50,839 bases of DNA from Nitrososphaeria archaeon (GTDB taxonomy: Archaea; Thermoproteota; Nitrososphaeria; Conexivisphaerales; UBA164): positions 1-50,839 of the forward strand of contig JAWDMM010000005.1 in the NCBI GenBank assembly GCA_046536595.1. Direction: 5' to 3'. The notes beneath the pieces were generated by a model that worked only from the letters and a program-made list of their open reading frames with translations, did no database searches and had not been told where the DNA came from. Below, one piece after another: positions 44,067-47,994 of this stretch. Numbering within the stretch: position 1 is the first letter of the stretch; the number at the start of each line of letters is the position of its first letter. A program made the position numbers and the translations under genes.

Positions 44067-44489
44067 TTAAAGGTCAACCAAAAACCTAACCTTGCATTTT
44101 TTTTCGTCATTTATTTCCATCAGATGATAAGTTATTCCTTTGACTTCCGTTCTAAAACCGTGCTTTTTTGGTGAATATTTTTCTCCTAAAATTTTTCCTT
44201 TAAGGCTAGGTTCTTTTTTATCTACCAGTATATCAAATTCACCAGCAGCAAATTTTTCTGCAGTTAACTTAATTATCAAGAACTCAAGCCATTTATAAAG
44301 CAAATTTTGCATGTCATAACCTTTGATTTCAACATCCAATCGTTCTCTAAGTTCAACCTTCTTTATGTTGTATACTAGCTTTAAAAGCCCTATAGCAGCC
44401 CCTTTAAAACATTCAGAAATATTTTCTCCAGTAACCTCAATGTATGCATCTCCCATATATTCAAGTTCCCTTATTTGCAAACGCATCAC
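44067..44489 (-). CDS. Archease
   Basis: LLYKWL, GEKY, TEVKGITYH, C-terminal VDL. Confidence 0.9.
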   Translation of the reverse strand: MMRLQIRELEYMGDAYIEVTGENISECFKGAAIGLLKLVYNIKKVELRERLDVEIKGYDMQNLLYKWLEFLIIKLTAEKFAAGEFDILVDKKEPSLKGKILGEKYSPKKHGFRTEVKGITYHLMEINDEKKCKVRFLVDL

Positions 44490-44495
44490 CTAAAT

Positions 44496-44567
44496 TGGAC
44501 CGGGGGGGACTTGAACCCCCGACCTCCCGCGTGCAAGGCGGGCGTTCTACCCCTGAACTACCGGCCC
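44496..44567 (-). tRNA. tRNA-Ala(UGC), no intron, CCA not encoded
   Basis: GGGCCGGTAGTTCAGGGGTAGAACGCCCGCCT-TGC-ACGCGGGAGGTCGGGGGTTCAAGTCCCCCCCGGTCCA; G3:U70 pair. Confidence 0.97.
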
Positions 44568-44756
44568 ATTTGTCTGGCTTATCAGTTTTCTTCATCCCTT
44601 TTGGTCAGTCCGCCCATCGTAAGACAAGCCATTAGACTGGGCTTTTAATGCAGCACTCCAACCTTTTGGTTGGAGTTTCCGGTTCACAGCCGCGCTTTGA
44701 CACACGGTCGTCCCCGGTCATCTTGTCCGTATATCCCACGTAAAGCCGCGTCAGGC
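44568..44756 (-). ncRNA. Candidate structured K-turn RNA (~189 nt) directly 5' of tRNA-Ala
   Basis: GC-rich, three hairpins, paired C/D-like boxes, upstream BRE/TATA. Confidence 0.6.
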
Positions 44757-44777
44757 AAAAAATCTTCCTTAAATTTA

Positions 44778-44793
44778 CTTATAAGCATTTCTG
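44778..44793 (-). promoter_or_regulatory. BRE-TATA promoter for the ncRNA-tRNA-archease unit
   Basis: Minus strand CAGAAA-tg-CTTATAAG, ~29 nt before G44756. Confidence 0.65.
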
Positions 44794-44875
44794 TAAAGGA
44801 CTATTTATTAATTCGCGTAAGGTGACTTACAGAGTTCCTAACCCCATAAATTTAAAAACTAATTGTTTTTGTTTG

Positions 44876-45268
44876 TTATGATTTTATGCGAACTATTTTT
44901 ATTTTGTCCATAACTTTCCAGTATTCTACTTCTTGTCCCTCCTTTATTCTAGGTTTAAGATCTTCCTCCATGTATTCAGCTTCAAGAGTCTGAAAAGTTT
45001 GAAGATCCATAAGCTGCACAACGTTTCCTGTAACGCTAAGTACCTGGCCAGAACCTTTTTCAATGATGGGTACTTCAACCTTTGATTCTGATGGACCCAC
45101 ATAGCTTTTTTTTGCTCCAGTAAATATATCAATCCCTACCAGCCTGACTTTAGCGCTTCCATGTTTTCCAGGTTTGCTTTTTTCAACTTCAACAACTTTG
45201 CAGGGGGAGTTATCGATCATTATGTATGAACCCTCTTTGATATCTCCTAATTCCATTGGTTTTGTCAT
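44876..45268 (-). CDS. eif5a: Translation factor aIF-5A
   Basis: SKPGKHGSAK hypusine motif. Confidence 0.97.
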   Translation of the reverse strand: MTKPMELGDIKEGSYIMIDNSPCKVVEVEKSKPGKHGSAKVRLVGIDIFTGAKKSYVGPSESKVEVPIIEKGSGQVLSVTGNVVQLMDLQTFQTLEAEYMEEDLKPRIKEGQEVEYWKVMDKIKIVRIKS

Positions 45269-45459: not shown

Positions 45460-46563
45460 ATGCAGAAAAATCAGGTAGAAGAAGGAAACGTAAAAATAGT
45501 AACGAAGATCGGTAATGATACTGCTTTCTATAATCCGTTGGGCGAATTTTCAAGAAGCGTTTTTGTTAAAATTTTCAGCGCGTATGCACTAATGAAAGGC
45601 GGAAATTTAACTTACGCAGAGCCATTTTCAGGAAGCGGGATAAAAGGCATAAGGCTTTCTGTTGAGGGAGGAGGCTTTTCTACTTTTATCTTTAATGATA
45701 TAGATAAAGGAAGTTTAAGGATTACAGAAGAAAACTGGAAAAATAACGTGGTAAATGGAGAAGGAATTTTCTATAACCTTGAGGCAAACGATTTTTTTCA
45801 GATTTTGGTCAACAAGGGAAGAGTCGACGGTTTAGATGTCGACCCTTTTGGCTCATCGTCGCCTTACATTTTTAACGCAATAAGGGCAGTTAGAGGTGGA
45901 GGGCTAATCTCTTTTACTTTTACAGATACACAGGTTTTGGGCGGGATACATTCAGAAGCGCTGGAAAAAAGGTATCACATTAGGGCAAAAAAAGTGCAGT
46001 TTCTAAAAGAGCTCCAGGCAAGGATCGCAATAACTAACGTGATTTTAGAAGCTTCAACAATCAATATAGCGGCATTTCCTGTTTTTGCCCATGTAGACAA
46101 ACATTATATAAGAACATACTACATTATAAAGCCAAAAGCTTCTCTCTCTAGCACACTGATTAAAAGTATAAAGTATATAACTACTAGCGATTGTGGTTAT
46201 AGTTCATTAGAAGAATCTTTTTACTGTCCTTACTGTGGTAAGCCTACAGATAACATAGGACCTTTATACATCGGTAATATATTTAACAAAGATCTAATTA
46301 AAAAAGCGCATGAATTATCTGAAGACTGTAAAAGGTGTTCTGAACTTTTTGAAATAGCTTTAGAAGAAAACGATAATATCCCATTTTATTATGATACTAG
46401 GTATCTGGCTTCCATGCTAAGAACAACAACGCCTTCAAAAAATATATTACTAGAAAGGTTAAGAACTTCAGGTTATAAATCATCACGGACAGTTTTTTGC
46501 CCAACTGGGCTTAAAACCTGCGCACCTTTTGGTATTTTAGAATCATTGTTTTATGTTAAATAG
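45460..46563 (+). CDS. trm1: tRNA (guanine26-N2)-dimethyltransferase
   Basis: FYNP, SGSGIKGIR, DVDPFGSS, TDT..L.G, HYIR, GPLY.G. Confidence 0.92.
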   Translation: MQKNQVEEGNVKIVTKIGNDTAFYNPLGEFSRSVFVKIFSAYALMKGGNLTYAEPFSGSGIKGIRLSVEGGGFSTFIFNDIDKGSLRITEENWKNNVVNGEGIFYNLEANDFFQILVNKGRVDGLDVDPFGSSSPYIFNAIRAVRGGGLISFTFTDTQVLGGIHSEALEKRYHIRAKKVQFLKELQARIAITNVILEASTINIAAFPVFAHVDKHYIRTYYIIKPKASLSSTLIKSIKYITTSDCGYSSLEESFYCPYCGKPTDNIGPLYIGNIFNKDLIKKAHELSEDCKRCSELFEIALEENDNIPFYYDTRYLASMLRTTTPSKNILLERLRTSGYKSSRTVFCPTGLKTCAPFGILESLFYVK

Positions 46564-47052: not shown

Positions 47053-47994
47053 TTGAAAATTGTTTTTTTAGGAACTTCAGCTGCTGTCCCCACAAAAGAA
47101 AGAAACACAGCTTCAATTTACATAACGACAACAAACGGGGCTTATCTTTTTGATGCTGGTGAAGGGTTGCAAAAACAACTTCAGATAGCCAGATTAAACC
47201 CTATAAAGATCAAGGCTGTATTTATCTCACACATACATTTTGATCACGTACTTGGCCTGCCAGGCCTTTTAATGACTATGGCTTTGATGAATAGAAAAGA
47301 ACCTTTAACTATTGTGGGCACCAGAAAGCTTTTTCAATTTTTAAAGATGTTTGGTGAAAAATTTTATATGGACTTAACGTTTGACGTTGAATTTGTTGAG
47401 GCGCATCAGGGCAGCGTTTACGAGAACAAAGAAATAAAAGTTACAGCTTTCCCAACTATCCACAGCACTGAGTCTTATGCATACAGAATATATGAGTACA
47501 AATTAAAAAGAAAATTTTACCCTGAAAAGGCGTTAAAACTCGGTATACCACGCGGACCACTCTGGAATAAACTGCAGCTCGGAGATAGCATTACTTTAAA
47601 CGGCAAAAAGATTACTCCGGAAATGGTAAGTGATCCTCCACCGCCACCGGTTTCTGTATCCATAAGCGGAGATACTGCGTATTTTGATGAGCTCATAGAT
47701 TTTTTTAAGGATTCTGACGTGCTTATTTATGAGTCGACGTTTTCAAAAGAGCTTGTTAACAAAGCGAGCGAGATGCTTCACTCAACTTCAGAACAGGCTG
47801 CGCTGGCGGCTTTAAAATCTGGCGTTAAACTTTTGGTGCTATATCATTTCAGCGAGAGGTACAAAAACGCAAAGCTTCTTGAGGAAGAAGCAAAAAAGAT
47901 ATTTCCTAACACGGTAGCGGCAAAAGATTTTATGTGTATAAAAATTGAAGATAACAATATAAGCGTTATAGATAATATTGAAAAATGTGAGTGA
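47053..47994 (+). CDS. rnz: Ribonuclease Z
   Basis: FLGTSAAVPT.ER, DAGEG, SHIHFDH, GP-motif arm, SGDT, HFSERY. Confidence 0.95.
   Translation: MKIVFLGTSAAVPTKERNTASIYITTTNGAYLFDAGEGLQKQLQIARLNPIKIKAVFISHIHFDHVLGLPGLLMTMALMNRKEPLTIVGTRKLFQFLKMFGEKFYMDLTFDVEFVEAHQGSVYENKEIKVTAFPTIHSTESYAYRIYEYKLKRKFYPEKALKLGIPRGPLWNKLQLGDSITLNGKKITPEMVSDPPPPPVSVSISGDTAYFDELIDFFKDSDVLIYESTFSKELVNKASEMLHSTSEQAALAALKSGVKLLVLYHFSERYKNAKLLEEEAKKIFPNTVAAKDFMCIKIEDNNISVIDNIEKCE

Follow-up and report, generated by a model that had tools for sequence, protein, structure and literature searches.

A putative circular box C/D-type guide RNA excised from the leader of a tRNA-Ala gene in Nitrososphaeria

The window that we analyzed is a 50,839-nucleotide stretch of DNA from a Nitrososphaeria archaeon, and all features of the locus described here lie on its minus strand. 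In minus-strand order, they are a gene for aIF5A (44876-45268), ~300 nt of non-coding DNA, a tRNA-Ala(UGC) gene (44496..44567; Rfam RF00005, 70.8 bits, and ARAGORN), and a gene for archease, of the RtcB activator family (44067..44489; Pfam PF01951, E = 1.6e-32), which follows the tRNA after ~6 nt. Rfam places G1 of the tRNA at 44567, and ARAGORN starts it one base earlier. Trm1 and RNase Z-like genes are also found near this locus. An initial annotation, made from the sequence without database searches, had described the non-coding stretch as an unrecognized RNA of ~190 nt with two K-turns, fused to the 5′ end of tRNA-Ala. All of the strings on which that description relied are present on the minus strand where it had placed them: a 9-bp hairpin (44676-44655), the 3′ domain in which GGCUUG...UAAGCC closes GAUGG-GCGGA-CUGA-CC-AAAA-GG-GAUGA-AGAAAA-CUGA, the ACAAAU that abuts tRNA-Ala, and two further strings located below. 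The RNA was also rightly called unrecognized. Searches against Rfam with the region (gathering threshold and E up to 10) and with eight homologous loci (E up to 1) returned only the tRNA and chance matches, and no family for the element.

How much of this leader is conserved? We searched 40 relatives with a 202-nt DNA query. Full-length matches were obtained only in genomes G002 and G005, and the last ~80 nt or its core was matched in 8/8 genomes of the same genus and in 16/16 other genomes of the same family. Within genus and family, conservation is confined to query positions ~122-202 (~44649-44569 of the window), that is, to the 3′ ~80 nt (44642-44564). The remaining 105 nt form a lineage-specific 5′ leader domain (44643..44748) that is present only in G000, G002, and G005 and absent from the other 14 of 17 family genomes, in which AT-rich, promoter-like sequence runs directly up to the conserved element. 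Homologues upstream of tRNA-Ala exist for the 3′ part of the RNA first described, and its 5′ part is restricted to three close relatives.

A putative promoter for the long leader, the TATA-like TTATAA at 44779..44784, was read from the sequence and is conserved in G002 and G005. RNA contig X1 record 1 begins at 44748, ~31 nt downstream of this motif, and a contig end of this kind is not proof of a transcription start. Together with X2 record 6 and X3 record 8, the same contig spans the 5′ domain contiguous with the element. The 192 nt upstream of tRNA-Ala fold better than shuffled sequences (z = -2.73; 3/200 shuffles as good), and the consensus fold of the three 5′ domains consists of three hairpins. 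The domain in this genome includes GAUAUACGG at 44735-27, CCGUGUGUC at 44707-699, the 9-bp hairpin, and a further hairpin that had been taken as the first structural unit of the RNA. This last hairpin is specific to this genome: neither G002 nor G005 retains it, and it does not appear in the consensus fold. We looked in the 5′ domain for a second small RNA or K-turn, and the three sequences share no box arrangement, box pair, or K-turn.

The conserved element lies directly 5′ of tRNA-Ala in 17/17 family loci, this genome included (one locus ends at a contig edge, with the 5′ half of the tRNA still visible). In this genus the adjoining tRNA carries the anticodon UGC, and in the remaining three genera of the family it carries CGC; archease follows downstream in 13/17 loci. 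Alignment of the 17 sequences (A1) revealed three helices. The outermost pairs GCCCA (44638..44642) with UGGGC (44564..44568), the latter being U-1 plus G1-C4 of tRNA-Ala itself; 92.5% of its cells are paired, 2/5 pairs show double changes, and the helix is also found in the minimum free energy (MFE) fold. The central 4-bp helix, GUCU (44634..44637) with AGAC (44572..44575), was assigned from alignment pairing and bulge geometry; it is 93.8% paired, with a U-A pair replaced by C-G in genus g3, and is not formed in the MFE fold. The inner helix pairs GGCUUGUC (44623..44630) with GAUAAGCC (44576..44583) and is 93% paired, with double changes in 4/8 pairs in the family and in 8/8 pairs class-wide. 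Overall, 94.3% of cells in A1 are paired, with compensatory changes in 7/21 pairs, and only 22-48% are paired in a control in which the partners were slid by 1-3 columns. In a class-wide set of 20 sequences, whose alignment was fitted to our covariance model, 92.4% of cells are paired and 18/21 pairs are compensatory.

The invariant letters of A1 are GA-GGGCGG (44618-10), CUGA (44608-05), CC (44604-03), GG (44598-97), AUGA (44595-92), and G (44590). The apex of the stem reads CUGA-CC-loop-GG-GAU-GA-AG, with one GA 5′ of a capped stem, a 3-nt bulge, a second GA, and two pairs to the CU of CUGA. By its predicted pairing, it is a single box C/D-type K-turn with a loop closing its "terminal" stem. 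Box D (CUGA, 44605..44608) is invariant in 17/17 family sequences; elsewhere in the class its first two letters vary (CAGA, CGGA, CCGA, AUGA), and the GA is always kept. The capped stem and loop, CC-AAAA-GG, occupy 44597..44604, with invariant CC/GG pairs; in family f4 this stem is 10 bp long, which fixes the register of the K-turn. The bulge G and box C (AUGAAGA; box C at 44595-89) lie at 44589..44596, with AUGA and the following G invariant. The pattern after the capped CC/GG stem with its 3-nt bulge is xAUGA(A/G)G, and box C departs from RUGAUGA at position 5 (A or G). The base after the GA of box C pairs with position 2 of box D, as U-A in 12 rows and U.G in 4. Box C and box D are thus able to form a K-turn, with GA/GA invariant in the 17 family and 20 class-wide sequences. 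A loose scan for K-turn hairpins gave 325 matches in this genome alone, which is noise.

The second K-turn of the initial annotation dissolves on comparison. Its D box, the CUGA at 44585-82, does not keep its CU (CGA, GUGA, and AUGA occur, and nothing comparable is found in g3), and its GA belongs to the 3′ strand of the covarying inner helix. The first C box of that annotation, GAUGG, belongs to an invariant single strand, the antisense element described below. Of the two K-turns, one is real and invariant, and the second resulted from a misparse. A second C′/D′ motif with spacers of ~12 nt, the archaeal norm, was not found, and no second box pair is conserved among the 17 family sequences. 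On the 5′ side, the strand that joins the inner helix to the K-turn measures 14-17 nt; its 3′ counterpart measures 5-8 nt. Archaeal C/D ribonucleoproteins (RNPs) are generally held to need both motifs (PMC8413462), a point that counts against a guide function.

The lower part of the stem has a second identity. The hBHBh′ motif, known from tRNA introns, consists of two bulges that flank a central helix, and the order GCCCA-GUCU-AAU-GGCUUGUC ... GAUAAGCC-AGAC-AAA-UGGGC reproduces it: either strand of the 4-bp helix is followed on its 3′ side by a 3-nt bulge (AAU, 44631..44633; AAA, 44569..44571). The conserved element therefore bears a canonical helix-bulge-helix-bulge-helix (hBHBh′, or BHB) splicing motif. 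When scored by script (central helix with 3-4 of 4 bp, outer helix with ≥1 bp), the motif was recovered in 13/17 loci of this family (f1), 3/3 in f4, 3/3 in f8, and 2/2 in f9. Central pairing in f1 was 4/4 in 11/17 loci and 3/4 in 2; the remaining 4 were judged by eye. The script misses genera g2 and g4, in which the inner helix is irregular. A combined K-turn and BHB scan gave 74 raw matches, and the full hBHBh′ motif occurred only in the tRNA-Ala leader (inner 8, outer 5).

Is the element cut at these bulges? We aligned metatranscriptome contigs from four runs (X1, X2, X3, and X8) to positions 44440-44860; runs X4-X7 and X9-X14, whose shares of the sequence words are small, were left aside. 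Two 92-nt RNA contigs from two studies reveal a 62-nt RNA (44570..44631) in circular form. In X2 record 4 (depth 685.8), letters 1-28 correspond to 44604-44631 and letters 29-92 to 44570-44633; in X8 record 9, from another study (depth 7.29), letters 5-68 correspond to 44570-44633 and letters 69-92 to 44608-44631. Both contain 0 mismatches and join 44570 to 44631 with 0 other letters between. Nucleotides 44632-33 (AA) are indistinguishable from 44571-70 (AA) in these contigs. The junction A44570-U44631 places the cuts between 44632 and 44631 and between 44570 and 44569, so that each bulge is severed 3′ of its second nucleotide, the position used by the splicing endonuclease. The earlier proposal was release by RNase P cleavage at G1; the junction places release at the BHB motif, and not by that cleavage alone. 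At the level of contigs, the excised piece is thus seen ligated into a 62-nt circle and cut like a tRNA intron.

We read the 92-letter length as that of a 62-nt circle assembled with 31-letter words (62 + 30), with k = 31 taken from the description of the contig tool. The shorter sides of the junction measure 28 and 24 letters, below the tool's 31-letter bridging rule, which no circular unitig can satisfy, and the tool's table of joints is empty. No tandem DNA repeat occurs at the element in the 17 family genomes. The depth of the circle contig in X2, 685.8, compares with 3.6-7.3 for contigs that reach the flanks or the leader. Unspliced sequence runs across the 5′ cut in X1 record 1 and in X3 record 8, and a precursor therefore exists as well. 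The exon join 44632|44569 was not seen in the contigs of the four runs, which carries no weight either way. The proposal of a K-turn RNA that lies ahead of tRNA-Ala and is released from a precursor was accordingly well founded.

We then asked what the circle might recognize. The 5′ strand between inner helix and box D, UUACGAUGGGCGGA (44609..44622), contains CGAUGGGCGG (44619-10), which forms 10 contiguous pairs, one of them G.U, with positions 1370-1379 of the genome's own 16S rRNA (CCGCCCGUCG; E. coli 1399-1408). This 16S gene (C21:8550-10051) reads ...CACACACCGCCCGUCGCUCC... in the decoding center. The guide letters GA-GGGCGG are invariant in 17/17 family sequences, the paired letters are the invariant letters, and the sole variable paired base, U or C, faces G1376, so that its pair is kept either way. 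An antisense element of 10 nt, where ~9 nt or more is expected of a guide, thus abuts box D, with a plausible Nm site at N+5. The spacers had been judged too short for a methylation guide, but this judgment follows from the misparse: 14 nt precede the conserved CUGA, and 10 of them pair with 16S. Position 5 upstream of box D (G44613) faces 16S C1373. With GYACACACCGCCCGU taken to be E. coli 1392-1406, C1373 would correspond to E. coli C1402. Bacteria use a protein enzyme to methylate C1402, and the eukaryotic guides for the same site are presumably snR70 and U43 (SNORD43). Methylation of the equivalent nucleotide is tabulated for E. coli (m4Cm), P. abyssi (Cm1376, by cryo-EM), yeast (Cm1639), and human (Cm1703) (PMC7005279 Table 4; PMC11542601 Tables 1-2), and Cm1645 of Arabidopsis is guided by AtU43 (PMC11542601 Table 1).

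Complementarity by itself is weak evidence here and is not significant. In this genome, 38 sites (own antisense included) can pair with the 14-nt strand over 10 or more contiguous bases with no more than one G.U; among the stable RNAs, the mapping covered 16S, and its site is the only one of these located in rRNA. A first scan with unlimited G.U gave 3656 runs and was uninformative, and it was repeated with ≤1 G.U. The weight of the 16S target comes from conservation, from register, and from two ordinary two-motif C/D sRNAs, in G017 (f2) and G069 (f10), that carry the same guide as their D guide, directly before box D. One of these two gives a weak CD-box match in Rfam. Outside f1, they are the only two sRNAs found with the pattern GAYGGGCGGNCTGA over 301 genomes of the class, and most of the matches there lie in apparent coding sequence; among the matches listed for the pattern CGAYGGGCGGNCTGACC over genome contigs, those in GC-rich bacteria represent chance. 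The register at the fifth position is kept in every family examined, and the first two guide positions drift. The anticodon arm of tRNA-Ala was considered as a target and rejected: by eye, GGGCGG pairs with it over 6 nt, shorter than the 16S pairing, and N+5 would be position 31, inside a stem. The earlier suggestion that the RNA acts on small-subunit rRNA is therefore very probably right.

Taken together, these data suggest that the element is a box C/D-type hairpin guide for the 16S decoding-center Cm, excised like an intron as a 62-nt circle, a reading to which we assign a probability of roughly two in three and in which the methylation itself is inferred. The RNA would in effect be a C/D guide with an ordinary target, the outcome that the initial annotation had named as speaking against its own proposal; biogenesis and architecture are unusual all the same. 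The circle may instead pair with the decoding center without guiding methylation, as an antisense chaperone of 30S assembly or as a recruiter of another enzyme, in the way that non-methylating C/D snoRNAs of eukaryotes serve rRNA acetylation. The single K-turn and the lack of canonical 12-nt spacing would fit such a role, as would the target, the most conserved and late-folding part of 16S, and C/D RNAs with non-methylating roles are listed for eukaryotes in a review (PMC7994747). However, the fifth guide position faces the only cytidine of the stretch that is known to be 2′-O-methylated in all three domains, the register is kept in every family even though the first two guide positions drift, and the ordinary two-motif sRNAs share both guide and register with the element. 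We therefore consider a role without methylation unlikely.

How widely is the element distributed? Using covariance model R1, with class-level counts taken from a sample of 151 genomes at one match per genome, we found matches in 16/16 other genomes of this family (f1), 80/81 of f7 (the unpublished G131 among the 80), 8/10 of f8, 2/2 of f9, 2/3 of f12, and 1/1 of f6. In f4, 3/9 genomes gave weaker full-length matches, reduced to 1/9 in the stricter 151-genome run. There were no R1 matches in f5 (0/14), f3 (0/8), f2 (0/2), f11 (0/3), or f10 (0/1). The model thus finds a single-copy element across much of the class Nitrososphaeria.

Inspection of 20 class-level matches revealed that the setting of the element varies. 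A BHB with tRNA-Ala(CGC) directly downstream is present in f8 (3/3) and f9 (2/2), so that the fusion of BHB and tRNA-Ala occurs in three families (f1, f8, and f9). In f4 the BHB stands alone; no tRNA lies on that strand, and the element comes after the aIF5A gene, in G028 immediately behind the stop codon. In f7 (13 matches) and f12 (1 match), the core UUCGAUGGGCGAAC-NGA-CC-loop-GGGAUGA is kept and is closed by an unbroken helix of 11-18 bp, a plain stem, with no tRNA nearby. We read the basal helix of f1, f4, f8, and f9 as a splicing cassette that would yield a circle, welded to the 5′ end of tRNA-Ala in f1, f8, and f9. Extended to the class, we lean slightly toward a hitherto undescribed Nitrososphaeria family of single-copy, one-K-turn hairpin guides for the universal decoding-center Cm, in which, in several of the taxonomic families, a BHB cassette would turn the guide into an RtcB-joined circle from a tRNA-Ala leader or the 3′ end of an mRNA. 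Our guess is that the families with the cassette are thermophilic.

This distribution bears on whether the element instead acts in cis, as a processing or regulatory cassette of the tRNA-Ala/archease transcript, that is, an L7Ae-binding leader that is removed and has no target in trans, the 16S match being chance. The fusion to tRNA-Ala in three families would suit such a cassette, as would an outer helix that sequesters the 5′ end of the tRNA and the many genomic sites that match the guide equally well. Against this, the same core with the invariant antisense letters occurs once per genome in families in which it adjoins neither tRNA nor archease (0/13 in f7, 0/1 in f12, and 0/3 in f4), and it is the excised piece that accumulates, not the leader. 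A role confined to the transcript is thus quite improbable.

Less credible still is the stand-alone ~190-nt RNA originally proposed, a U3-like or spacer-like double-K-turn molecule released by RNase P that would contact the 5′ end of 16S through AACCGGAA. Its strings are all present, and all three genomes with the 5′ domain retain a GAACCGG core. But the second box pair is not conserved, the 5′ 105 nt are missing from 14/17 family genomes, and what accumulates is the 62-nt circle rather than an RNA of 190 nt. As AACCGGAA lies in the non-conserved 5′ part, found in 3 genomes, and is paired internally within a predicted CCGG/CCGG helix, it lends no support to a U3-like contact with the 16S 5′ end. 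An atypical H/ACA guide might be suggested by the K-turn in the upper part of the hairpin and by the ACA that this genome has ~16 nt downstream of the loop, but it is hardly tenable, since the ACA varies (ACG in G003 and G004, AUA in g3, CUA in g4), the 3′ strand of the presumed pocket varies freely, and no U stands at the expected target position when the conserved strand pairs with 16S.

How would a circular methylation guide arise from this locus? The sRNA would be cotranscribed with tRNA-Ala, in this genome with the 105-nt extra leader in front, and the transcript would fold into the hBHBh′ motif, with the first four nucleotides of tRNA-Ala recruited into its outer helix. The splicing endonuclease, the enzyme that we infer, would cut after the second nucleotide of each 3-nt bulge, and the 62-nt piece would be joined end to end, presumably by RtcB, with archease encoded next door. 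The circle would then accumulate, and tRNA-Ala would be left with a 2-nt leader, or with the religated leader, for RNase P. In the circle, the K-turn at the helix tip (CUGA, capped CC/GG stem, GAU bulge, GA) would be the binding site of L7Ae, with Nop5-fibrillarin joining next. Through its 5′ strand, the internal loop would pair over 10 bp with 16S 1370-1379, and fibrillarin would then 2′-O-methylate the E. coli C1402 equivalent, which faces guide position 5 counted upstream from box D. The genome encodes the corresponding proteins: two EndA paralogues (tRNA_int_endo, 93 and 31.1 bits), RtcB (586 bits), and L7Ae, Nop5, and fibrillarin (113.9-287.5 bits, the middle score of the three being 235.7), with archease immediately after tRNA-Ala. 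A single K-turn might suffice for Nop5-fibrillarin as a half-mer or in a di-RNP mode, or the basal helix might replace C′/D′. The loop on the "terminal" stem of the K-turn makes the gene order a permutation of that in a linear sRNA. The order guide, D, capped stem, C is what would result from opening a circular sRNA elsewhere, and an origin of the element by permutation is no more than speculation.

Several known RNAs resemble the element in part. One is the C/D sRNA in the archaeal tRNA-Trp intron, likewise a BHB-flanked guide in a tRNA precursor that becomes a circle via the tRNA splicing machinery; it guides Cm34/Um39 and is excised at the BHB and circularized (PMC9014305, PMC7714728, PMC7994747). 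The element differs in that the cassette lies in a 5′ leader and not in the tRNA body, or, in f4, after aIF5A without a tRNA; its removal joins no functional exons, and its target would be 16S in trans and not the host tRNA. With canonical archaeal C/D sRNAs and with snR70/U43, it shares the box D plus box C K-turn, an antisense stretch that abuts box D, the N+5 rule, and a conserved Cm target, but it has a single K-turn, a loop-capped stem, and a plain helix where C′/D′ and a second guide would be.

BHB cleavage and ligation outside tRNA bodies and rRNA processing stems are described for the permuted SRP RNA of Thermoproteus, the cbf5 mRNA intron, and the HVO_1309 5′ untranslated region (UTR) (PMC4731332; PMC7714728); in the present case, the excised piece would itself be the functional product, a putative modification guide. 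The only further BHB substrates named in PMC7714728 are cbf5 mRNA and one 5′ UTR. Dicistronic tRNA-C/D sRNA genes of Ignicoccus, Thermoproteus, Nanoarchaeum, and plants also let a guide ride on a tRNA unit; their sRNA is placed downstream and freed by tRNA 3′ processing (PMC7994747), whereas ours lies upstream and would be freed by the splicing endonuclease. The circularization of C/D RNAs in T. kodakarensis is assigned to Rnl (PMC9014305), and a review calls the mechanism of C/D RNA circularization unclear (PMC7994747). Within the open full-text literature, with subscription journals and supplements outside our scope, we found neither a BHB-flanked C/D guide outside tRNA-Trp nor a description of C/D sRNAs for the class Nitrososphaeria.

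The locus offers a concrete and testable route to circular box C/D RNAs, through a BHB, EndA, and RtcB; Thermococcus uses a different ligase. If the guide reading is true, this would be a second, splicing-type route to such circles, a natural "half-mer" guide in vivo, and a snapshot of guides settling in intron-like cassettes. A conserved natural guide with one K-turn would bear on the long-debated requirement for two symmetric motifs in archaeal C/D RNPs, to which half-mers or di-RNPs are the alternative. It would also point to RNA-guided specification of the decoding-center Cm common to the three domains in a large archaeal lineage, which we assume to include the ammonia oxidizers, and the few splicing-endonuclease substrates that are neither tRNA bodies nor rRNA stems would be joined by one whose "intron" is the product. 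As the element stands outside Rfam, model R1 could be used to annotate further copies. The model also picks up tRNA-Trp introns in f3, the classical analogue: in a less strict run, two f3 genomes gave weak matches (E = 0.045 and 0.08) that proved to be such introns, with the same layout of guide, D, capped stem, and C as in the element and with a 3′ guide that puts C34 at N+5.

The gene directly downstream of the tRNA-Ala(UGC) (44496 to 44567, minus strand) that carries the BHB cassette, the splicing motif that encloses the probable one-K-turn guide RNA, encodes archease, a member of the RtcB activator family. This gene lies at 44067 to 44489 on the same strand, and its start is about 6 nt 3' of the tRNA. 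Archease directly follows the cassette-bearing tRNA-Ala in 13 of the 17 loci of the archaeon's own family, and thus the ligase cofactor is encoded beside a ligase substrate. The two are possibly carried on a shared transcript. Other tRNA-processing genes are abundant around the cassette locus: Trm1, the tRNA m2,2G methyltransferase (45460 to 46563, plus strand), and an RNase Z-like metallo-beta-lactamase (47053 to 47994, plus strand) both lie within 3.5 kb.

At locus L073 of another family, f4, the sRNA is located directly 3' of the aIF5A stop codon. An intron-containing tRNA-Ala(CGC) (1646 to 1737 of that locus, minus strand) is convergent to it; this tRNA is inverted, though synteny is retained.

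The guide that pairs with the 16S decoding centre was also found as the D guide of ordinary two-motif C/D sRNAs in families f2 (L026) and f10 (L053). A GCC-UAA-GGC hairpin separates D' from C' in both RNAs, and the C'-to-D spacing of L026 is 16 nt instead of 12.

In family f3, the tRNA-Trp introns of L076 and L077 are approximately 55 nt long and contain one K-turn (UUGA-CC-GCGA-GG-GAUGAUGA), with C34 as the N+5 position for the 3' guide. Part of one of these two introns was miscalled by ARAGORN as tRNA-Ile. The tRNA-Trp(CCA) of the archaeon itself (contig C13, 17644 to 17808) has a 90-nt intron, the 3' part of which (AAAUUCUGGAGC) is antisense to its own tRNA anticodon loop; no clean box C could be placed 3' of the GUGA-hairpin in this intron.

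RNA contigs from three runs differed from the window at 44666 (T>G), 44668 (G>A), and 44702 (A>G; plus-strand letters). These differences look like strain variants within the nonconserved 5' domain of the leader.

A short sequence containing GCAUACCUAUCGUACGCGU occurs on at least 15 contigs of the archaeon's genome (for example, C7, C47, C2, C68, C95, C32, C75, C91, C24, C66, and C46), and a longer coding repeat occurs on C10, C11, C15, and C30. Both are probably interspersed copies of mobile elements.
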